Notes: generated by a model not told the origin, from the letters alone. A DNA stretch of 64,000 nucleotides from a virus (IMGVR_UViG_2563366895_000001:27011-91010), one strand, 5' to 3'. Shown: positions 5,971 through 43,467, numbered from the stretch's first letter. Made by a program: numbers and translations.

Positions 5971-6635
5971 TGCCGGGTACGTCTCCGGCGAGGGCTTCCA
6001 CCTCCGTATGCTTTTCGGCGCACCGCGCCCTAGCTGCAATTCGGTAACAGGGGATGCATAACCCTGGCTTCCAGCGTGATTAGCGCTTTCAGCATGACGG
6101 GATATACCCGTAAATTAGTGGAACTGTACCCAAAGTGCTGTTAAGCACCGGCTGTTACGCTGAAAAGAAGACGCAACAGGAAAGGACGCTGACCAACAGA
6201 TGGCCCCTTCTCGTTCATCTGGTTAATCACACCAGCGCCCTTACCTGTTGTGCCTCCCCATTCCCTAATACACAGACGGGGGCACTCTGCGGTCGATTTT
6301 TTGACGGGGGACGACTCATACCCCGTGGCATCAGGCTTCTTAGGCCGCTGCCATCATCAGATCATCGTTTGCATTTACTTTAATGGTCAGTTTCTAAACC
6401 GCCGCAAAGTCGCTAACCATGACGAAAACCCAGAAAAAACGCCCACCCGAAGATGGGCAAACTGGAAGCTCGTAACGCACTTCGGTGTTGCCACTTAGGC
6501 GTATGGTCAACCTGGCAACTCGGCGTCATGAGGGGGAAGGAGTCACTACCCCGCCATACTTGCCGCCGCGCCTGTCGCGGCTAACAGCTAAATCGCTCTA
6601 TAAATCACGATTCATTGAGTCGATATTACACTAAT

Positions 6636-6652
6636 AAATTTATTAGAGCAAT
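6636..6652 (-). promoter_or_regulatory. C1-repressor operator-like site (16/17 to ATTGCTCTAATAAATTT), overlapping the dmt stop codon
   Basis: Plus strand reads AAATTTATTAGAGCAAT, the reverse complement of the P1 C1 operator consensus. Confidence 0.55.
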
Positions 6653-9600
6653 GTAGCCATAACGTCATGAGCAACACCACGAGTGTCTCCCTTACAAGAC
6701 ACAGAACGTCTGGCAAAGAGAGGTTCCACTCTGAAGCCACTGTCCTGATAAAGTTCTCTGATGTTTGGCGCGCCACTGTTAGTAATGAGTACCTTTGCAC
6801 CTCGGCGATGAGCATCCGTCAACAGAGACACCAGGCGTTTTTGCTCTTCAAACTTAAAGTCATGACCGGAATAGTTCGTGAATCCCTCTGTATTTGGAAG
6901 CGGTTCATATGGCGGATCGCAAAAAATGACATCTCCTTCTCCGGCAGCTTCAATCACCGCAGCAAAATCACCACATACAAACTCAGAACGCCCTTCCGCA
7001 CCAAGGAAGACTTCCATCTCCTGCAATGGGAAATACGGAGTTTTATACTTCCCATAACCGACATTGAACTCACCGGCTTGGTTGTAACGCGTCAATCCAT
7101 TAAAACAATGTCGGTTCAGGAACAAAAACGCCGCTGCGAGATGTAAATCATCATAGACTTGTTTGTTAAACGCATTCCGTACTGCCAGGAATCCCTCCTG
7201 GGTGTTGTAGTCCAGGAAGAAACGATGTGCCAGAGTGATAAGTGAATGCGCCTCGCGTTGCAGAGTCTTGTAAAAGTTAATCAGGTCAGCATTCACATCA
7301 TTTAGCAGATTTTCCTGGTATCCGGCATTTATGAAGACAGCTCCGCCACCAACGAAAGGTTCAATCAGGCGCTTCCCTTCTGGCAAATAGCGAAAGATTT
7401 GTTCCAGAACACCAAATTTTCCACCAGCCCATTTGAATATGGACCGTTCGAATTCTGCCGCTGGTTTAACTTTTCGCTCTTTTGTTTCACTTCCTTCTTT
7501 CTGCCGACATACGGCCTTAGTAATCCGATCGCCAATCCAGCACATTACTGGTATTGCCATACTATTGCCGATCGCTTTGTAACGCGGTCCGTCAGCTGCA
7601 AGCATCGCGGCCTCTTCTTCGCTTAAATCTGGATAGTGATTGCGAAGATATGCCAGTTCATCTGAATTAACTGTTTTACGCTTTTCCGTCGGGATCAACG
7701 TATGCCCATCAGGAAAACCTTGCAGCCTTTCACATTCGACAGGGGTAAGACGGCGCATTCTACCGTCGCCGAGCAATACAATTGGTGCTTCATGGTTACA
7801 TGTCAAAGTTGGTGCCGAATTATCGGTTTTTATCTCAGCCCCTCCTTGCCCATGTGCCATGGCAATTATGTTTGTATCATCGCAAGTTCTGATAGCGATG
7901 TTTGAAGTATATCTGGTAGTTTCCTTCCCCTCGCCTCTGCTCGGCGCAATATCCCGGCGCACGCCTTCGAACTCAAAAAGTACCGTTGCGGGATCGAGGT
8001 CTGTTCGAGCACTTGCGACAACAAACACGCGTCGGCGTCGTTGTGCCACTCCGAAGTATTGGGCATCAAGGATTCTCCAGGCCACTTTTCGCTGCGATCC
8101 ATAAATACAACCACACTGCGGCCACTTTGGAGCATGGCAACCGGTTTTGCCATCCCACCGCCAGAACGCGTTACTTTTTCCTGATTCAGGTCGATCACCT
8201 GGTTCAAATGGCGCATCTTCTCCAGCCAATCCGGCAAGGAAACATCCGAAGGCGTTATCTGCCGATGACAAGACTCCTGGGACATTTTCCCAGACGATAA
8301 CGGCTGGTTTGAGAAATGACTCAGCCCGTTTGTCGTCAATTGCATTTGCAAGCTCCACATACTTTAAAGTTAGCGCGCCACGCTCATCATCAAGCCCACC
8401 ACGTAATCCCGCGATACTGAATGCCTGACAGTTATGGACCACCGCACCATTGAGGATATAGGAATGATCACCTTCGACTTCTATGTTGTATACAGTATCT
8501 AGGCCTACCGATTTAAACTCTTTGACTGTTCGTAAAAGCATTCCATGAGCCAATCTTGATTTACGTGACAATTTCTGCGGGCAGATTGTTACCTGATAAT
8601 AATTCCGTTGATTTACCACGCGATCCTCGATCACTTTTTTGGGCTCAACTTCAATAAAGCTGACCGAAGAAACATAACCACAAGTCTGTGACAACCCCGC
8701 AACGCCCCAAGCAAGCGCAGGACTAACACTATTAATTCTAAATCCCGCTTTACCACTTGGTGTCCCATCAGTATCAAGATAGCCTTGTAAAAACACATGA
8801 CGCAATGGATGCGACATCACCCATGCAGGGATACGCTTAGCATGGCTTAACTCGCCAAAATGTTCATTAAGCCAATTGGCATAACACGTATCATTCAAGG
8901 TTACTTTGATGCTCCCTCGGATTTCGCTTGCCACGGAAAATATGTTTTCTGGTATGCGGCAATGAAACTTTCTCAATTTCTGGCAATTTATGCCAAAAAC
9001 AACCGCCTTCTTAGATTTACCTCTCCATCTCCTAATATATCCATCGCCAACATAAGCGCCCGCAAGATACATAGCCTGTTCTTCAGACAAGAACCGAGAA
9101 CAAATATCTGGAGATGCAATATTGAAATTAGTTAGAGCGCACCATTGATATCCCGGCATATCACATGCTGCTCGCCATTCCGGTTCAGACAACAACTCTC
9201 TCTTAAAATATGTGCCATTTTTCCGGGTGTTTTGGGCTTTCCACCGAACAGCCAGGAAGGGATGGTCATTGGTTGTTCTTATACCTAAAGGCTGCCCAAC
9301 GGCATTAAGTAACCCCGTATTAGCTATTTTTGAACCAACTCTTTTTACTTGTTGTAACCGCCCGAGATGACTGACTACGTAATCGCCAGGGCAAACATCT
9401 TCTATTGGTTTATAACCATTTTTACAAAGAACCATATGCCCCGCGGTAAAACATGGTGTTCCCCCGACGAGCACGTCAGGGGATTCGATTTCCCCAGCCA
9501 AGACTTTTTTGGCAAGTTTTGTCATGTCGCCAAGGTTGGCGACATGGGGCCAGCGGAGCGCAAGAACGGCCGATGGAAAAGGCTCGATTTCAGCAAACCA

Positions 9601-9684
9601 CGCCGGACGCATACCCAACGGTTCCCAGGCAATACTCGCGGCTTCAATTCCACTGCAAACAGATCCATAGCACAGCTCTTTCAC
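6643..9684 (-). CDS. dmt: Bifunctional DNA methyltransferase: N-terminal C5-cytosine MTase domain (interrupted by an intein) fused to a C-terminal Dam-like N6-adenine MTase domain
   Basis: C5-MTase motifs [12 protein letters not shown] (PCQ), VWENVPG (ENV), [17 protein letters not shown]; Dam-like motifs PFVGGGAVF and CDPPYEP in the C-terminal third; stop overlaps nothing but start overlaps hrdC stop (9681..9684). Confidence 0.85.
8431..9453 (-). other. Intein (341 aa) with LAGLIDADG homing-endonuclease domain, inserted at the catalytic Cys of the C5-MTase PCQ motif
   Basis: Extein GGTP | intein CFTAGHMVL...([13 protein letters not shown] ... [11 protein letters not shown]) ...ILNGAVVHN | extein CQAFSIAG; codons checked on the minus strand (TGT at 9453..9451, AAC at 8433..8431, TGT-CAG following). 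Confidence 0.8.
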
Positions 9685-10586
9685 TGCTTAGCCTCTCCGC
9701 CAAGGGCATTTACCAGAGCATCAACCAGGCACGAAATTTCACTGGTCAACAGGAAGAAATCTGCGTCCAGTCGCTGCGCTACATCTTCACTATCAATATC
9801 AGAGTTCTGCTCAAGCAATTCATCCGCAAATTTGACGCTGGTAAGGCTGAAGTTATGGTCCAGTGTAAATTTAATGCGGTTCTGCCAGTCGAGTGCCAAC
9901 TTAGTGACGAGCTTGCCAGCTTCCAGGTGTGTGGAAATTTCATCGCTTCCCAGATCCTGCTTTTTCACTCGGGCAATACCGCCATCCTCAAGCACTGCCT
10001 TAAGTTCTGCCGCATCCCCCATTTGAAATCCCTGTGGAGCACTACCATCACGTACCCAGTCGGTCAGCGTTAATTCAATGGGATTTTCAACACTCAGGGG
10101 AACAACAGGAAGAGAACCCAGAGACTTACGCATAAGCGCGAGCATATCCTCTGCCTGCCGCGCGCTGGCATTGATATAGATACGTTTAGTTGAACCGTCG
10201 TAGATCGCCTGGATAACAGAAAACTTTGAAAAAGCCCGTGGCAGAAGAGAATGCAGAACTTCGTCTTTCAGGGAGTCCTTCTCTGTTTTCTTCAGTTTAC
10301 GCGCTTGTTCTTGCTCAAGTTTTTCAATTTTTTCTTGAATAGCTCGCTGGATAACCGGCGGGGGAAGAATTTTTGTTTCGCGCTTTGCTTCAACAAGGAT
10401 AAAACCATTTCCATGCATAGCGATAACTTCGGAATTATCGCCAAATGGAGATACAAAACCGAACTTGGCCATATCCTGACTACCGCATGGCGTGAAAAGG
10501 ATCATTTTCTTTTTATCTTCTAAGTCGGTCAGATCCGCCTCACGAGAAAGTTTATAAATAGTAATGTTTTTCCAGTGCTTAAACAT
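9681..10586 (-). CDS. hrdC: RdgC-like recombination-associated protein (P1 hrdC position)
   Basis: Start at internal ATG 10586; strong resemblance to E. coli RdgC over the whole length ([16 protein letters not shown]..., [54 protein letters not shown], ending GGEAKQ). Confidence 0.85.
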
Positions 10587-22582: not shown

Positions 22583-23921
22583 CATAAGCGCTAACTTAAG
22601 GGTTGTGGTATTACGCCTGATATGATTTAACGTGCCGATGAATTACTCTCACGATAACTGGTCAGCAATTCTGGCCCATATTGGTAAGCCCGAAGAACTG
22701 GATACTTCGGCACGTAATGCCGGGGCTCTAACCCGCCGCCGCGAAATTCGTGATGCTGCAACTCTGCTACGTCTGGGGCTGGCTTACGGCCCCGGGGGGA
22801 TGTCATTACGTGAAGTCACTGCATGGGCTCAGCTCCATGACGTTGCAACATTATCTGACGTGGCTCTCCTGAAGCGGCTGCGGAATGCCGCCGACTGGTT
22901 TGGCATACTTGCCGCACAAACACTTGCTGTACGCGCCGCAGTTACGGGTTGTACAAGCGGAAAGAGATTGCGTCTTGTCGATGGAACAGCAATCAGTGCG
23001 CCCGGGGGCGGCAGCGCTGAATGGCGACTACATATGGGATATGATCCTCATACCTGTCAGTTCACTGATTTTGAGCTAACCGACAGCAGAGACGCTGAAC
23101 GGCTGGACCGATTTGCGCAAACGGCAGACGAGATACGCATTGCTGACCGGGGATTCGGTTCGCGTCCCGAATGTATCCGCTCACTTGCTTTTGGAGAAGC
23201 TGATTATATCGTCCGGGTTCACTGGCGAGGATTGCGCTGGTTAACTGCAGAAGGAATGCGCTTTGACATGATGGGTTTTCTGCGCGGGCTGGATTGCGGT
23301 AAGAACGGTGAAACCACTGTAATGATAGGCAATTCAGGTAATAAAAAAGCCGGAGCTCCCTTTCCGGCACGTCTCATTGCCGTATCACTTCCTCCCGAAA
23401 AAGCATTAATCAGTAAAACCCGACTGCTCAGCGAGAATCGTCGAAAAGGACGAGTAGTTCAGGCGGAAACGCTGGAAGCAGCGGGCCATTTGCTATTGCT
23501 AACATCATTACCGGAAGATGAATATTCAGCAGAGCAAGTGGCTGATTGTTACCGTCTGCGATGGCAAATTGAACTGGCTTTTAAGCGGCTCAAAAGTTTG
23601 CTGCACCTGGATGCTTTGCGTGCAAAGGAACCTGAACTCGCGAAAGCGTGGATATTTGCTAATCTACTCGCCGCATTTTTAATTGACGACATAATCCAGC
23701 CATCGCTGGATTTCCCCCCCAGAAGTGCTGGATCCGAAAAGAAGAACTAACTCGTTGTGGAGAATAACAAAAATGGTCATCTGGAGCTTACAGGTGGCCA
23801 TTCGTGGGACAGTATCCCTGACAGCCTACAAAACGCAATTGAAGAACGCGAGGCATCGTCTTAACGAGGCACCGAGGCGTCGCATTCTTCAGATGGTTCA
23901 ACCCTTAAGTTAGCGCTTATG
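22583..23921 (+). mobile_element. IS186-like insertion sequence (IS4 family), 1339 bp, with 10-bp target-site duplication
   Basis: Perfect 23-bp terminal inverted repeats CATAAGCGCTAACTTAAGGGTTG (22583..22605 and 23899..23921); direct repeat GGATCTCTCC at 22573..22582 and 23922..23931. Confidence 0.8.
22632..23750 (+). CDS. insL: IS186-like transposase
   Basis: 372-aa ORF filling the IS; translation (MNYSHDNWSAILAHIGKPEELDTSARNAGALTRRREIRD...) matches my recollection of IS186 InsL. Confidence 0.8.
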   Translation: MPMNYSHDNWSAILAHIGKPEELDTSARNAGALTRRREIRDAATLLRLGLAYGPGGMSLREVTAWAQLHDVATLSDVALLKRLRNAADWFGILAAQTLAVRAAVTGCTSGKRLRLVDGTAISAPGGGSAEWRLHMGYDPHTCQFTDFELTDSRDAERLDRFAQTADEIRIADRGFGSRPECIRSLAFGEADYIVRVHWRGLRWLTAEGMRFDMMGFLRGLDCGKNGETTVMIGNSGNKKAGAPFPARLIAVSLPPEKALISKTRLLSENRRKGRVVQAETLEAAGHLLLLTSLPEDEYSAEQVADCYRLRWQIELAFKRLKSLLHLDALRAKEPELAKAWIFANLLAAFLIDDIIQPSLDFPPRSAGSEKKN

Positions 23922-38460: not shown

Positions 38461-41400
38461 ATGAATGACGTTACAGTTGTTACATCGGTTACTTACCCAT
38501 CACCCGAGTCGTTGGCTCTGGTGGCTGATGTGCAATACCACGAACCATATCTGTCAGCCGCGCTAAACCGAAAATTCAGGGGAATTGTTGACCCTGGATT
38601 TTATGCCGGTTTCTTTCCTAAGCCTGGCGGTGGGATGAACCTGTTAATCACCTCAGTGGATGGTGATAAAACCGCTGGCGCGGCGTCAGTGAATATCGGT
38701 GAATTCTACCAGGTAACTATTCAGCAGCGTAAGGATATTTCTCTTGCACTTAGCGCAGGTAAGAAATATGCAATTGTGCTGAAGGGAAGATACCTTCTTG
38801 GAGAAGATACCTATCAGGTGAATACCGCGTCACATATTCATGCAGCTGAATTTGTTGCCAGAACCTATACCGATTCATATCAGTTAGGTGATGGGGAACT
38901 GCTGGTTTGTACGGTGAATATCCCTGCTGGCGTATCTGCTATTACTCAGGAAATGATAGATGTATCTGACCGCATCGATCTCACGATAGGCATTGAAATT
39001 TCCGACTCTGTAACCAGTACCAGAAGTGATGTCGCTGCAAGTTCGCTGGCGGTTAAAAAAACCTACGATCTGGCAAAAAGCAAGTATACGGCGCAGGATG
39101 CAAGCACAACACAAAAGGGATTAGTTCAGCTCAGTAGCGCAACTAACAGCGACAGCGAAACAATGGCGGCTACCCCTAAAGCCGTTAAGTCTGTAAAAGA
39201 GCTGGCTGATACCAAAGCGCCAATAGAAAGCCCAGAGCTTACAGGAACGCCAACCGCGCCGACGGCAGCGCAAAGCACAAACAGCACGCAGATCGCAAAT
39301 ACAGCCTTTGTTAAGGCAGCTATAACAGCACTTATCAATGGTGCTCCTGGAGCACTGGATACGTTGAAAGAAATTGCGGCTGCGATCAATAACGACCCGA
39401 ATTTCAGCACAACTATCAACAATGCCCTGGCTCTCAAAGCGCCTTTGGCAAGCCCTGCATTAACGGGTATCCCTACTGCACCTACCGCTGCACAGGGCAC
39501 AAACAATACGCAGATCGCTACGACTGCTTACGTACGGGCTGCTATATCTGCATTGGTCGGCTCATCACCAGAAGCTCTTGATACCCTGAATGAGCTTGCA
39601 GCAGCACTTGGCAATGACCCGAACTTTGCGACAACAATGACAAATGCGCTGGCAGGGAAACAGCCACTTGATGCAACTTTAACAGCGCTCGCTGGCCTTA
39701 CGACTGGCGCAAATAAATTGCCGTACTTTACCGGTACAGACACTGTTTCCCAGACTGATTTAACGTCAGTCGGTCGCGATATCCTGGCTAAAACAAGCAC
39801 ACTGGCTGTTATCCAATACCTTGGTTTAAGAGAAATCGGTACCAGTGGTGAAAAGATCCCCCTGTTGAGCACGGCTAACACATGGAGTGCACGCCAGACT
39901 TTCAACGGTGGGATCACCGGGGCGCTGACAGGGAACGCCGACACCGCGACGAAATTGAAAACAGCACGCACGATTGGCGGTGTGGCATTTGATGGTACTG
40001 CGAATATTAATTTACCTGGTGTTAACGTTGCGGGTAATCAGAATACATCCGGTAACGCGGCTACAGCGACCAAGTTACAAACCGCGAGAACTATAAATGG
40101 GGTGTCGTTTGACGGTTCTAAAAACATTGAGCTAACTCCAAGGTCTATAGGCACGATCAACTCAACAACCATGTCTTTTATTGGTGGTGCAGGATGGTTC
40201 AAGCTGGCAACTGTAACCATGCCACAGGCCAGTTCCGTAGTTTACATAAGCCTGATTGGTAGTTCTGGATATAATGTTAACTCCCCTATGCAGGCTGGTA
40301 TATCTGAACTTGTTCTTCGAGCGGGAAATGGGAATCCAAAAGGTCTTACTGGTGCGTTATGGCGACGGACATCGGTTGGATTTACTAATTTTGCATGGGT
40401 GAATACATCCGGTGATACCTATGATGTTTATGTTGAAATAGGTAATTACGCCACGGGTGTAAATATCCAGTGGGATTATACCAGTAACGCCAGCGTAACG
40501 ATTCATACATCACCAAATTACACAGTAGATAAACCAACTGGTCTTACTGATGGAACGGTATATGTCATTTACAGTTCGCACATTAAACCGACCGCCACGG
40601 ATGTCGGCGCATTACCAATAACCGGAGGAAATCTCAACGGCGGTTTAACTGCTACTGGTGAGATCATTTCAAAATCGGCGAATGGTCTGCGCATTGCCTA
40701 CGGAAACTACGGATTCTTTATCCGAAACGATGGTTCAAACACATATTTCATGTTGACCGATTCGGGTAACAGCCTGGGAACCTATAATAGTTTAAGGCCG
40801 CTTATCATTAACAATGCCAATGGTACTGTTACGATCGGTAATGGACTCAATGTTACTGGCGGCATCAATGGTAGTTTGAACGGCAATGCTTCAACGGCTA
40901 CGAAGTTGCAAAAGGCGAGAAACATCAATGGTGTTCAGTTTGATGGTTCTGCGGACATTTCGATCCCAACAATTACGTCCAGAGGACGTGTTACTGCGCT
41001 CACCGGAACAACGCAAGGCGATGCAGCTGGGTTGCAAATGTATGAGGCGTACAACAATGGTTATCCTACGGCTTACGGGAATATTCTTCACCTGAAGGGA
41101 GCCACATCCAGAGGTGAAGGCGAGTTACTCATTGGCTGGAGTGCTACAAGTGGTGCTCATGCACCTATCTTAATTCGCTCCAGAAGAGATAACACAGATG
41201 CGGCATGGTCTGAGTGGGCACAGGTCTATACATCGAAAGACTCCATACCGGGCGTAAATACAACGGGCAACCAGAACACAACAGGAAATGCGGCATCTGC
41301 CACGAAATTACAAACGGCAAGAACCATTGGTGGCGTTTCATTTAATGGTACCGCAAACATCGACCTGCCAGGTGTGAATAAAACAGGTAATCAGAGCACT

Positions 41401-42765
41401 ACTGGCAATGCTGCAACTGCAACAAAACTGCAAACAGCACGCACAATAGGCGGAGTGTCATTCGATGGTAGTGCCAATATCGACCTGCCGGGCGTGAATA
41501 AAGCAGGTAATCAGAGCACTACCGGTAATGCCGCAACCGCAACGAAACTTCAGACGGCCCGCACAATCGGCGGCGTGTCATTCGATGGCTCCGCCAATAT
41601 CAACCTGCCGGGTGTAAACATTGCTGGTAACCAGAACACGACCGGTAATGCAGCTACGGCTACCAAATTGCAAACAGCGCGTACCATTAATGGGGTTTCA
41701 TTTGACGGTTCTGCGAATATTTCACTGTCACCAGCAAATATTGGTTGCCCGGCATCTCCTACTGGTTGGTTAACAACAGGTAATAACGGTGAGTCAATAA
41801 CGACAGCCCAGTTAGTTACTTTGTTGCAAAATAACGGGGCATTCAATACGAAAGCATGGATCGCTCGTTGTGCATGGGCGTATGCGAATAGTGCATCCAT
41901 ACCAGACAGTGAAACTGGTTGTGGCATTATTCCACTGGCGGGTGCTGTGATAGAAGTATTCAGCAATAATACCAACAATTACACCATTCGAATAACAACG
42001 GCCACTACGACAAATGTCTCTGGTGCACTCACTAATGCGGAGTTTATCTATGTGTCTAATGGCTCAAGTTATTCACCTGGATGGCGCAGAGCGTATAACA
42101 CTAAAAATAAACCTACTACTGCTGACCTTGGCCTGAGCGATGCAAGTGGATACGTTGGACGCCTTGTAAACACTCGAATTTTCACTTCATCAGGTACGTA
42201 CACCCCGACACCAGGAACTAAACGAATCAGGGTCACAATTACGGGCGGCGGTGGCGGAGGGGGTGGCTGCCAGGCTACATCCAATAACGAAACGTTTTTC
42301 GGTGCAGGCGGTGGGGCCGGCGGGACAGTAATTGTCACGCTGACCCTGACGAAGGATAGTTATCCTGTCACTATCGGCGCAGGTGGGGGCGGCGGTGTTG
42401 GTGCGACGAACGGCCTCAAGGGCGGTGATAGCTCGTTCGGAACGGTAATAGCCCCTGGCGGTGAAGGCGGCGGGAAAGTAGGAGTCACAAACACGAACGG
42501 TGGTAATGGAGGCGCGCCGAATACTGGTGATGTCCGCATTATTGGTGGGCATGGAGGAGACGGTCAGTCCGGAAATATCAGCGTCAGTGGTGAAGGGGGA
42601 TCATCGTTCTGGGGGGGCGGTGGTCGCGCAGGCGCTGGCGGTGGCGTTATCGGTCGGGCATATGGTTCGGGCGGCGGTGGTGCATACGATGCCGGTTATA
42701 GCGGAACCAGTATGACGGGCGGGAAAGGCGCTGCAGGGATTTGTATTATCGAGGAGTTTGCATAA
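38461..42765 (+). CDS. S: Tail fibre protein with tandem fibre repeats and Gly-rich C-terminal domain
   Basis: Start taken at ATG 38461 after AAGGA (listed ORF begins upstream in the same frame); three ~60-aa repeats (TGTPTAPTAAQSTNSTQIANTAFV...); at least seven ~32-aa repeats (GNQNTTGNAATATKLQTARTIGGVSFDGSANI.LPGVN); poly-Gly-rich C-terminus. Confidence 0.8.
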   Translation: MNDVTVVTSVTYPSPESLALVADVQYHEPYLSAALNRKFRGIVDPGFYAGFFPKPGGGMNLLITSVDGDKTAGAASVNIGEFYQVTIQQRKDISLALSAGKKYAIVLKGRYLLGEDTYQVNTASHIHAAEFVARTYTDSYQLGDGELLVCTVNIPAGVSAITQEMIDVSDRIDLTIGIEISDSVTSTRSDVAASSLAVKKTYDLAKSKYTAQDASTTQKGLVQLSSATNSDSETMAATPKAVKSVKELADTKAPIESPELTGTPTAPTAAQSTNSTQIANTAFVKAAITALINGAPGALDTLKEIAAAINNDPNFSTTINNALALKAPLASPALTGIPTAPTAAQGTNNTQIATTAYVRAAISALVGSSPEALDTLNELAAALGNDPNFATTMTNALAGKQPLDATLTALAGLTTGANKLPYFTGTDTVSQTDLTSVGRDILAKTSTLAVIQYLGLREIGTSGEKIPLLSTANTWSARQTFNGGITGALTGNADTATKLKTARTIGGVAFDGTANINLPGVNVAGNQNTSGNAATATKLQTARTINGVSFDGSKNIELTPRSIGTINSTTMSFIGGAGWFKLATVTMPQASSVVYISLIGSSGYNVNSPMQAGISELVLRAGNGNPKGLTGALWRRTSVGFTNFAWVNTSGDTYDVYVEIGNYATGVNIQWDYTSNASVTIHTSPNYTVDKPTGLTDGTVYVIYSSHIKPTATDVGALPITGGNLNGGLTATGEIISKSANGLRIAYGNYGFFIRNDGSNTYFMLTDSGNSLGTYNSLRPLIINNANGTVTIGNGLNVTGGINGSLNGNASTATKLQKARNINGVQFDGSADISIPTITSRGRVTALTGTTQGDAAGLQMYEAYNNGYPTAYGNILHLKGATSRGEGELLIGWSATSGAHAPILIRSRRDNTDAAWSEWAQVYTSKDSIPGVNTTGNQNTTGNAASATKLQTARTIGGVSFNGTANIDLPGVNKTGNQSTTGNAATATKLQTARTIGGVSFDGSANIDLPGVNKAGNQSTTGNAATATKLQTARTIGGVSFDGSANINLPGVNIAGNQNTTGNAATATKLQTARTINGVSFDGSANISLSPANIGCPASPTGWLTTGNNGESITTAQLVTLLQNNGAFNTKAWIARCAWAYANSASIPDSETGCGIIPLAGAVIEVFSNNTNNYTIRITTATTTNVSGALTNAEFIYVSNGSSYSPGWRRAYNTKNKPTTADLGLSDASGYVGRLVNTRIFTSSGTYTPTPGTKRIRVTITGGGGGGGGCQATSNNETFFGAGGGAGGTVIVTLTLTKDSYPVTIGAGGGGGVGATNGLKGGDSSFGTVIAPGGEGGGKVGVTNTNGGNGGAPNTGDVRIIGGHGGDGQSGNISVSGEGGSSFWGGGGRAGAGGGVIGRAYGSGGGGAYDAGYSGTSMTGGKGAAGICIIEEFA
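41245..41725 (+). repeat. Four tandem 96-bp coding repeats inside the tail fibre gene
   Basis: Four consecutive 32-aa units of the GNQ.TTGNAA.ATKLQTARTIGGVSF.G.ANI.LPGVN type. Confidence 0.6.
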
Positions 42766-43175
42766 TGAATACATCATATGCAGTTATTGAAAATGGGATG
42801 GTTGTGAATGTCATTGTCTGGGATGGCGAGGCTGAATTCACAGTGCCGGATAATCAGCAGCTCATTAATATTTCTGATATCAGTGAGCAGCCCGGAATCG
42901 GCTGGGTGTATTCAGACGGGGGATTTACTGCACCACCCACTCCGGAACGTTCTCATGATGAACTGGTAGCTGACGCTGAACAGAAAAAACAGTCGCTGAT
43001 TGATACCGCAATGGCTTCCATTAGTCTTATTCAACTGAAATTACAGGCCGGGCGGAATCTTACGCAGGCTGAAACCACCCGTCTTAACGCTGTGTTGGAT
43101 TATATCAATGCGGTGACCGCAACGGATACCAGCACTGCACCAGATGTCAATTTTCCAGCGTTCCCGGAGGCGTAG
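42765..43175 (+). CDS. U: Tail fibre assembly chaperone (Tfa, P1 U-like)
   Basis: ATG overlaps the fibre stop (TAATG) after GAGGAG; 136 aa; typical Tfa size and position. Confidence 0.55.
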   Translation: MNTSYAVIENGMVVNVIVWDGEAEFTVPDNQQLINISDISEQPGIGWVYSDGGFTAPPTPERSHDELVADAEQKKQSLIDTAMASISLIQLKLQAGRNLTQAETTRLNAVLDYINAVTATDTSTAPDVNFPAFPEA

Positions 43176-43214: not shown

Positions 43215-43467
43215 TGGTTCCAGTGCATCCTGATAAGATGATTACTGTTCATGCTTCAAGAGCGAGCGCATACTGCATCCAAGCCAATCTAACTTTCATT
43301 CGACCAGAGTGTCACCTCTCAAAAGCATTTTTTAACTCTGGTCGTTCAGCCTTTTTGCCGCTCGCCTTGTCCTCAAAAATTAGCTCACATCCTGCGCTTT
43401 CAAGAGCATTTCGTTGTAAAGCAGTGTTTTGTTCATTTGTTGATACGCGTACATAGCCTATTAGCAT
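43215..43467 (-). pseudogene. cin: Truncated, decayed cin-like serine invertase gene
   Basis: Minus-strand hand translation from ATG 43467: MLIGYVRVSTNEQNTALQRNALESAGCELIFEDKASGKKAERPELKNAFER then stop; downstream in other frames GDTLVE and KLDWLGCSMRSLLKHEQ; matches the Cin/Hin/Gin N-terminus; the rest of the gene is absent. Confidence 0.6.

Follow-up and report, generated by a model that had tools for sequence, protein, structure and literature searches.

P1-like phage-plasmids are common in Escherichia coli and Salmonella, carry resistance genes, and serve as DNA-delivery vehicles, and the S fibre sets which bacteria they reach. The viral stretch IMGVR_UViG_2563366895_000001:27011-91010 (64,000 nucleotides, nt; hereafter the window, meaning the whole stretch) contains at positions 38461-42765 a long gene that an earlier note had described as a tail fibre built from repeats and a glycine-rich tip. 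The locus raises the question of which fibre this is, how its parts are joined, and whether its tip can still be switched. Our answer, held with good confidence, is that the gene is S of a P1-family phage-plasmid, that its product would be a modular fibre in which a 40-amino-acid (aa) repeat acts as a recombination joint and a tip of the type found in cyanophage Pam3 forms the distal end, and that the Cin inversion switch beside it is dead. The gene and its modules are as follows (r is the 40-aa unit).

38461-42765, plus strand: gene S, in the order Sc - link - r r - A1 - A2 - r - B - r r r r - C - G
38461-39821, plus strand: Sc, constant baseplate-proximal part (aa 1-453), 95% DNA identity to P1 and the same end as the 1361-nt Sc of P1
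40171-40842, plus strand: modules A1 (aa 571-705, no family match) and A2 (aa 706-794, a gp34-trimerisation-like knob)
41002-41241, plus strand: module B (aa 848-927), a small knob that P1 Sv and Sv' share at 75-78% identity, no Pfam match
41767-42126, plus strand: module C (aa 1103-1222), a homologue of a domain inside Mu S'
42127-42762, plus strand: module G (aa 1223-1434), the distal tip, rich in glycine, with a TNF-like beta-sandwich and a glycine-rich lattice in the model

The open reading frame (ORF) is an uninterrupted plus-strand frame of 1434 codons, with its ATG at 38461 and its stop codon at 42763-42765, and the 1434-aa product matches PHROG 454 "tail fiber protein" (E 0). Megablast aligned positions 38000-39965 to P1 gene R and the constant part of S at 95.2% DNA identity, and the Sc protein was 95% identical to that of the P1 ORF; the identification as a tail fibre made in the earlier note was thereby confirmed and narrowed to P1 gene S. 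The PHROG and Pfam assignments of the neighbours fit the P1-family gene order sit - pmgA - bplA - 16 - R - S - U beside lyd genes. The closest sequences overall were non-mobilizable E. coli plasmids of 90-140 kb, with pIPCEC31_2, pSvP1_F, and NZ_CP116245 matching at 97% identity and full coverage. Because of the P1 flanking genes and their order, the Sc identity, the plasmid matches, and a P1-type late promoter (LPs), the window was assigned by sequence to a P1-like phage-plasmid of E. coli and the ORF to its gene S. It is the sole fibre-type gene seen in the window, and it would be expressed late from LPs as part of an R-S-U operon.

Pfam domains in S comprised Phage_fiber_2 (aa 215-254), Gp34_trimer (aa 706-783, E 1e-27), and Gly_rich_2 (aa 1243-1431). 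Against the Protein Data Bank (PDB), aa 728-802 matched the knobs of Mu S (5yvq, residues 265-339) and T4 gp34 (4uxe, 5nxh), and module C (query aa 1076-1233) matched residues 187-335 of 8ju3 (Mu S/S') in a phmmer search (chain E 6.8e-33). In the fibre proposed here, a P1-type Sc would dock a trimeric "beads on a string" structure to the baseplate, and the knobs A1, A2, B, and C, all of which are present in other P1/Mu-type fibres, would follow it, spaced by 40-aa shaft units. The arrangement differs among relatives. The plasmids pSvP1_F and pIPCEC31_2 have the module order of the window, but with r r r in place of r r r r; pSBF45b, in which the switch is intact, has Sc-link-r r-B-r r-C-G and is without A1 and A2; CP099080 has Sc-link-A2'-r-B-r r-C-G; and P1 S itself has Sc-link-r-B'-r-...-A2'. 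Further relatives showed C-A2-r r-A1 orders, or arrays of 3-5 units right before G, the arrays overall containing 2-5 units. Across the mapped relatives, the same few knobs recur in many orders, and 40-aa units almost always lie between them.

The repeats of the fibre fall into two families, which were located as follows.

39175-39396, plus strand: 74-aa (222-nt) repeat, unit 1, from self-alignment
39397-39618, plus strand: 74-aa repeat, unit 2
39619-39705, plus strand: 74-aa repeat, partial third copy
39892-40011, plus strand: 40-aa unit r1, in tandem with r2
40012-40131, plus strand: 40-aa unit r2
40843-40962, plus strand: 40-aa unit r3, solo
41245-41724, plus strand: four tandem 40-aa units, W1 (from 41245), W2 (from 41365), W3 (from 41485), and W4 (from 41605)

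The two families came from a self-comparison with 45-aa segments, in which the internal repeats announced in the earlier note were found; whole-protein self-BLAST gave the identity match alone. In the first family, aa 239-339 align with aa 313-415 at an offset of 74 aa (E 8e-19), with full units at aa 239-312 and 313-386 whose local alignment scored 217, as compared with a shuffle mean of 34 and a maximum of 72, and with a partial third copy of approximately 15-29 aa. The three N-terminal repeats of about 60 residues that had been proposed are therefore a real family, although the unit is 74 aa long and occurs as two full copies and one partial copy. These units are the "repeated elements b1/b2" (222-223 nt) in the annotation of the P1 genome record. 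In the second family, a motif scan and a profile detected exactly seven units of 40 aa (120 nt), arranged as two in tandem, one solo, and four in tandem; the count of seven agrees with that given previously, whereas the unit is 40 rather than about 32 residues long. The self-match E-values of this unit, 1e-13 to 1e-26, were well past chance, and a profile of the seven units found no eighth, degenerate unit at E<=100.

The four tandem copies that had been placed at 41245-41725 hold in position and register, since Tandem Repeats Finder reported 41248-41678 with a period of 120, 3.6 copies, 78% matches, no indels, and a score of 442. They are not perfect in sequence. In pairwise comparison, W1-W4 share 84-101 of 120 nt (70-84%), with differences at 19-36 positions, and 32-38 of 40 aa, and the longest exact in-register runs among them are 6-19 nt. 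Their differing codons include 15-26 synonymous and 2-8 non-synonymous changes, and because the differences are mostly synonymous, the 40-aa unit is under purifying selection, its protein strongly constrained while its DNA has drifted apart.

The consensus of the unit was LPGVNxxGNQxTTGNAATATKLQTARTIGGVSFDGSANI. The four-unit array and the r1-r2 pair, when scanned alone, had no meaningful Pfam match, and no NCBIfam model was found for the unit, S, or U. PF03406 (Phage_fiber_2) was considered as a family for the unit and rejected, because the model matches aa 215-254 (the "KGLVQLSSATNS...AATPKAVK" motif) instead. The C-terminal part of phage L Dec is a trimeric beta-helical spike. A profile of the seven units matched, marginally, this part of Dec (6e3c, E 7e-4) and the tail fibre gp47 (8vbx, E 3e-3) in the PDB, both of which carry the NAxTAxKLxTARTI...SFDGSANI motif, and on account of these matches, each 40-aa unit most likely builds a segment of a trimeric beta-helical shaft.

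The earlier note had also predicted that repeat number would be subject to expansion and contraction, and such variation was indeed observed: relatives that are 97% identical have three units where the window has four, others have two, and one carries a hybrid of units 3 and 4. In a flank-to-flank search of plasmids, the record spans implied three units in five plasmids, two in three, and a longer array in one; no record had four units between these flanks, and the four-unit allele was also absent from complete E. coli genomes. Repeat counts were taken from DNA comparisons, as the S entries in the protein collection are mostly fragments among P1-like phages. Unit painting showed that unit 3 of pIPCEC31_2 consists exactly of W3 positions 1-47 followed by W4 positions 48-120, its identity to W4 reaching back to position 37, which makes it a clean W3/W4 hybrid of the kind that unequal crossing-over would leave. 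The W3/W4 crossover lies within their longest common run, of 11 nt (window 41521-41531 and 41641-41651). The plasmid pSvP1_F reached three units by another route, its unit 1 being W1 with the 3' end of W3 and its unit 2 a mosaic. Because the three-unit structures of pSvP1_F and pIPCEC31_2 differ, they point to independent events accompanied by patchy conversion.

Breakpoints in the same unit were also found where whole modules are exchanged. pSBF45b is without A1-A2-r3, with the breakpoint inside the in-register r2/r3 overlap (a hybrid), and the homology to P1 stops at 39965, inside r1. Judged from these alignments, the larger role of the 40-aa unit is that of a joint for whole-module exchange, the knob modules being gained, lost, or reordered with breakpoints in the units. 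Unequal exchange between units alters the unit number to 2, 3, or 4, and exchange between distant units inserts, deletes, or reorders entire knob modules. The description of the repeats as an easy target for recombination was borne out insofar as copy number does vary, but the ease was overstated, given exact runs of 6-19 nt, with which the tandem units make poor homologous-recombination substrates. Since the substrates are short and diverged, the exchange events were probably rare and not classical RecA exchange. Tail-fibre mosaicism as such has reportedly been long established, by Sandmeier, Iida, and Arber for P1/p15B and by Haggard-Ljungquist for P2. As a natural splice point, the 40-aa unit suggests where to cut in the engineering of chimeric P1 fibres.

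In the annotation listed for PLSDB/RefSeq plasmids, gene S is often absent or just its last ~420 codons are annotated, under the name "glycine-rich domain-containing protein" (for example, pSvP1_F 6375-7646). The full S frame, of 1394 codons, is nonetheless open in pSvP1_F and similar records.

The C-terminal domain was found to be as rich in GGGG runs as had been claimed, with 70 glycines in the last 212 aa (33%), including a G8 run. Its match to Pfam PF21722 (Gly_rich_2) scores 44.3 bits, the cutoff being 24.3, and extends over aa 1243-1431 and profile positions 2-224 of 226. An AlphaFold2 model of the tip, built on an alignment with 124 diverse 50%-cluster representatives, had a predicted local distance difference test (pLDDT) score of 95.6 and a predicted template modelling (pTM) score of 0.90, and in it a beta-sandwich continues into a lattice of extended glycine-rich strands. 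Foldseek matched this model to 7ypx_A in the PDB (E 7e-9) and, among viral models, to the tail fibre of the jumbo phage Goslar (TM 0.98, 71% identity). Sequence and profile searches of the PDB detected no relative of the glycine-rich domain, and fold comparison alone did. Among 1.84 billion cluster representatives, 7908 tip relatives were found at E<=1e-3, and the domain was C-terminal in almost all of the 150 representatives listed. Conserved glycine runs alternate with variable segments in the 125-sequence alignment; the variation across 76 close tip alleles was scattered and uninformative at such divergence, with no clear hypervariable loops. Accordingly modelled, the tip is a TNF-like plus glycine-rich domain of the type of Pam3 gp24. 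A gp38-type polyglycine-II adhesin was also considered as the tip fold and set aside, S16 gp38 (6F45) not being among the matches listed.

The Goslar protein is a 1324-aa "tail fiber repeat protein" (BFVD A0A482GGW0, Escherichia phage vB_EcoM_Goslar). Because it ends in a tip that is 71% identical, the tip module also circulates in virulent jumbo phages.

The glycine-rich fibre tips of Pam3 were proposed to be receptor binders that are folded by a Mu Tfa-like chaperone (PMC9608196), and a homologue of gp24 in a Klebsiella phage binds lipopolysaccharide (LPS), with host-range mutations in its glycine-rich domain (PMC12671077). From the resemblance of the fold to gp24 and this published work, we infer that module G is the distal end of the fibre, which would contact the receptor, and that the receptor is most likely LPS. 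Alternatively, the glycine-rich domain may be a capping or assembly part, possibly removed or inert, and the knobs A2, B, and C would recognise the host. The knobs have the relatives for such a role, as module C matches residues 187-335 of Mu S' and A2 the knobs of Mu S and T4 gp34, the variable regions of P1 S and S' that determine host range also contain B and C, and the same G tip sits on very different shafts. However, the fold is that of a fibre in which the glycine-rich domain lies at the far end and has been put forward as the part that recognises the receptor, the host-range mutations of the homologue map to this very domain, a dedicated chaperone travels with the tip, and the domain keeps its C-terminal place in nearly all listed representatives. 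No Pfam match to the self-cleaving chaperone domain Peptidase_S74 was found in S at E<=1, which leaves removal of the tip by that route without its signature. Host recognition by the knobs instead of the tip is thus unlikely, and receptor binding by module G is the reading preferred here. In the earlier note the fixed tip was named the sole receptor-binding determinant; it would be a binder on the grounds given, but the internal knobs may bind as well. As the tip is common to P2-like prophages and Goslar, knowledge of host range may transfer between these phages.

The chaperone lies directly downstream.

42765-43175, plus strand: U-like tail-fibre assembly chaperone, 136 aa, Pfam Caudo_TAP (E 1e-20)

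Its ATG at 42765 overlaps the stop codon of S (TAATG) and starts 8 nt after a GAGGAG Shine-Dalgarno sequence, so that its translation is predicted to be coupled to that of S, and the tip would fold with the help of this co-transferred, coupled Tfa-type chaperone. It shares 27% identity with P1 U, in the C-terminal part only, and 90% with the chaperone that follows a 583-aa P2-type gpH with the same tip in P2-like prophages. The DNA of 42127-43165 is 88.5% identical, in an ungapped alignment, to tfa and the 3' end of H of one such prophage, and the tip and chaperone travel together as a cassette common to P2-like prophages. Tips of approximately 90% identity end many other E. coli prophage proteins. 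Widespread E. coli ORFs to which their sources give the name "carbohydrate kinase" (P0103-P0120, for example P0118 with 308 aa and 238 contigs) also carry the glycine-rich tip at their end, at 87-89% identity and behind an unrelated 96-aa N-terminus (MHRIDTKTAQKDKF...), and the name looks like that of a misannotated phage fibre or tip protein.

The border of the cassette suggests a possible route of import. Homology to the P2-like gpH cassette starts exactly at a CTTGG that is aligned with the cix crossover core (window 42104-42154; L008 6091-6141), and the gpH tip is preceded by GTTATTCAATATCTTGG, a 15/17 match to the cix left half-site that likewise encodes AVIQYLGL. The foreign cassette may then have been imported by an invertase of the Cin/Din family at a cix-like quasi-site and not by homologous recombination, an idea that we regard as doubtful. 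The LGL at the border may simply be the conserved first strand of the tip module, since all the contexts examined have LGL ahead of the tip (DLGL, YLGL, NLGL). If import by invertase were true, these enzymes would drive horizontal tip acquisition between P1-, P2-, and Mu-type phages, besides switching resident tips. A candidate quasi-site in gpH reads GTTATTCAATATCTTGGTCTGAGCGAT.

Whether the tip can be switched in the window itself is answered by two remnants of the inversion system.

39812-39831, plus strand: orphan cixR crossover site at the Sc/Sv junction, 20/20 nt identical to the annotated P1 cixR and 1361 nt into S, as in P1
43257-43467, minus strand: cin pseudogene, codons 1-74, frameshifted after codon 49 (tblastn with pSBF45b Cin)

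The statement of the earlier note that the invertase is gone proved correct, as only the frameshifted codons 1-74 of cin are left and no other Cin homologue was found in the 64 kb. A search of the window for 20-mers with <=5 mismatches found no second cix-like site, and tblastn with pSBF45b probes found no U', while the Sv' probe matched only repeats and modules inside S. Relative to pSBF45b, positions 7155-9690 of its locus are deleted (~2.5 kb), removing U', Sv', cixL, and the 3' part of cin, and ~37 nt that are unmatched in pSBF45b (43230-43266) fill the junction. pSBF45b retains two cix sites, alternative cassettes, and Cin, whereas the window has no complete switch of the Cin/Min type. 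A precise Cin-mediated deletion was rejected as the cause of the locked state, given that the deletion ends inside cin, ~350 nt past cixL, and carries the 37-nt filler. Having lost two-thirds of cin, at its 3' side, along with U', Sv', and cixL, the lineage makes one fibre only, with a fixed tip.

The closest plasmids have the identical deletion junction. In PLSDB, 43 plasmids hold >=80% of the stretch made up of tip, chaperone, and cin stump, which is covered to 99-100% in one piece by the four top rows listed; among complete E. coli genomes, 5 of 5426 hold >=80% of S, U, and the stump, the best being 97.6% identical. These counts indicate a sizeable P1-like sub-lineage that is without a tip switch and has a single tip only. 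A partial invertase ORF and the lack of a complete C segment have already been reported for pSvP1 (PMC6906374). The best match among the complete genomes, NZ_CP097001.1 494547-499539 (NCCP 15734; 97.6%, three units by span), lies in a 5.17-Mb chromosome record and not in a plasmid, which suggests that the P1-like element there is integrated or mis-joined.

A locked switch might also mark the gene as a decaying relic in a plasmid-prophage that makes no infectious particles, with the locked state and the odd repeat number as neutral debris. This would accord with the frameshifted cin stump, with an ORF for an insertion sequence (IS)-type transposase in the window, and with pSvP1, in which several structural genes are interrupted by IS elements and cin is truncated, induction having been tried only on the unrelated pTZ20_1P (PMC6906374). 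It accords poorly with an intact 1434-codon frame whose late promoter, ribosome-binding site, and coupled chaperone are conserved, with repeat-unit differences that are mostly synonymous, and with full-length sit, bplA, gp16, and R; moreover, the locked arrangement is also found in records that are 92-99% identical, which points to persistence. Decay is accordingly quite improbable, and we favour a fibre gene that is locked but maintained. Hardly credible is the view that misassembly of repetitive DNA produced the fourth unit and the copy-number differences as a whole: repeats are a classic cause of assembly collapse and expansion, and the identical four-unit allele occurs in no record of the plasmid or complete E. 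coli genome collections, but units that differ at 19-36 of 120 positions can each be placed uniquely by reads, the three-unit alleles come from independent complete assemblies with two distinct, internally consistent hybrid structures, and the frame is kept in all alleles.

Some observations weigh against the reading of S as a functional modular fibre that is recombined at its shaft units and ends in a Pam3-type tip. The tip model depends on the alignment, as AlphaFold2 gave a pLDDT of 37.5 for aa 1100-1434 with 44 near-identical homologues, and the fold match comes from the prediction of a monomer. The shaft assignment of the 40-aa repeat stands on two marginal PDB profile matches. With 11 nt of homology, the exchange is not of the classical RecA kind. 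The knobs A2, B, and C within the fibre are similar to domains of other fibres and could bind surface structures themselves. Finally, some relatives in this lineage are defective prophages, pSvP1 having sit and pmgB interrupted by IS elements (PMC6906374), so that function in the present element is not guaranteed.

The surroundings of S are those of a P1 late region, with the following features upstream.

31595-35314: sit, SLT-domain protein, 1239 aa
35667-37100: baseplate protein (bplA is among the neighbours assigned by PHROG/Pfam)
37097-37936: gp16
37966-37984, plus strand: P1-type late promoter LPs, upstream of R, matching the LPs core in the P1 annotation (-22 box plus -10) at 18/19 nt
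38015-38449, plus strand: gene R, P1 tail-fibre structure/assembly protein, 144 aa (PHROG 2032, E 3.7e-84)

Of these genes, sit, bplA, gp16, and R are all full length in the window. On the 3' side of S, the Caudo_TAP chaperone is followed by LydC/LydA-type holins, LydB, and DarA-domain proteins, again from PHROG/Pfam assignments. Elsewhere in the window, an ORF with a DDE_Tnp_1 transposase domain (22632-23750, plus strand) marks an IS element within the P1-like backbone. A 1013-aa ORF on the minus strand (6643-9684) combines C5 DNA_methylase and D12 N6-adenine methyltransferase domains and resembles P1 Dmt; it also matches Hint_2 (aa 77-126) and LAGLIDADG_3 (aa 298-361), which suggests that an intein with a homing endonuclease is inserted in this methyltransferase ORF.

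Among known systems, the nearest is P1 itself, with its R-S-U genes, the invertible C segment between cixL and cixR, the alternative Sv/Sv' and U/U', and cin, together with the related Min system of p15B. The window shares the gene order and late promoter of P1, Sc at 95% DNA identity, an identical cixR, and the 74-aa elements, and P1 Sv and Sv' contain both module B and the 40-aa unit. In contrast to P1, it is without the invertible segment (U', Sv', cixL, and most of cin being deleted), its variable part is 980 aa long instead of 534 aa, it has the extra modules A1, A2, and C and seven 40-aa units where P1 has two, and its tip and chaperone are unrelated to those of P1. The plasmids pSvP1/pSvP1_F (from E. 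coli SvETEC) and pIPCEC31_2 match the window at 97% identity over R-S-U and the stump of cin, share its junction, modules, and tip, and differ in that pSvP1_F and pIPCEC31_2 carry three tandem units, reached by two different hybrid or mosaic routes, instead of four. The fibre repeats, modules, and tip fold of pSvP1 were not described by Venturini et al. (2019; PMC6906374).

The tip places the fibre beside systems outside the P1 family. Pam3 gp24/gp25 (7YPX/7YFW; PMC9608196) likewise has glycine motifs alternating with variable segments and a Tfa-type chaperone directly downstream. However, gp24, at ~250-280 aa, is a minimal fibre whose shaft is alpha-helical, whereas the tip in the window caps a P1/Mu-type shaft of 1222 aa; the relation goes undetected in hidden Markov model searches of PDB sequences, and the chaperone in the window is of the Caudo_TAP type. 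The P2-like gpH (583 aa, with a PF12571 N-terminus) shares the cassette at 88.5% DNA identity over 1039 ungapped nt, with the tip at ~90% and the chaperone at 90% protein identity. Its baseplate-attachment domain and shaft are wholly different, and its tip stands directly after AVIQYLGL, which resembles the cix-encoded end of P1 Sc, whereas in the window the tip comes after module C. In Mu S/S' and the chaperone U (5YVQ, 8JU3), A2, C, and the "KGLVQLSSATNS..AATPKAVK" motif are homologous to those of the window and a Tfa-family chaperone is also used; the distal domains of Mu are replaced in the window by the glycine-rich tip, and Mu keeps its Gin switch. The gp38 adhesins of T2, T6, and S16 (polyglycine-II sandwich, 6F45), which Pam3 gp24 was reported to resemble weakly (PMC9608196), also present glycine motifs that alternate with variable segments at a fibre tip, but gp38 is a separate monomer attached to gp37, whereas the domain in the window is fused to the fibre, one per chain.

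Taken together, S is a locked, well-preserved, and unusually long mosaic member of the P1 S family, and its component phenomena were all known already: tail-fibre mosaicism, the repeats in the constant part of P1 S, the truncated cin of this lineage, and the glycine-rich fold. Nothing here overturns current understanding. What the present analysis adds to these systems is the assignment of the tip fold, the mapped hybrid units, and the demonstration of the 40-aa unit as the joint for exchange of fibre modules.

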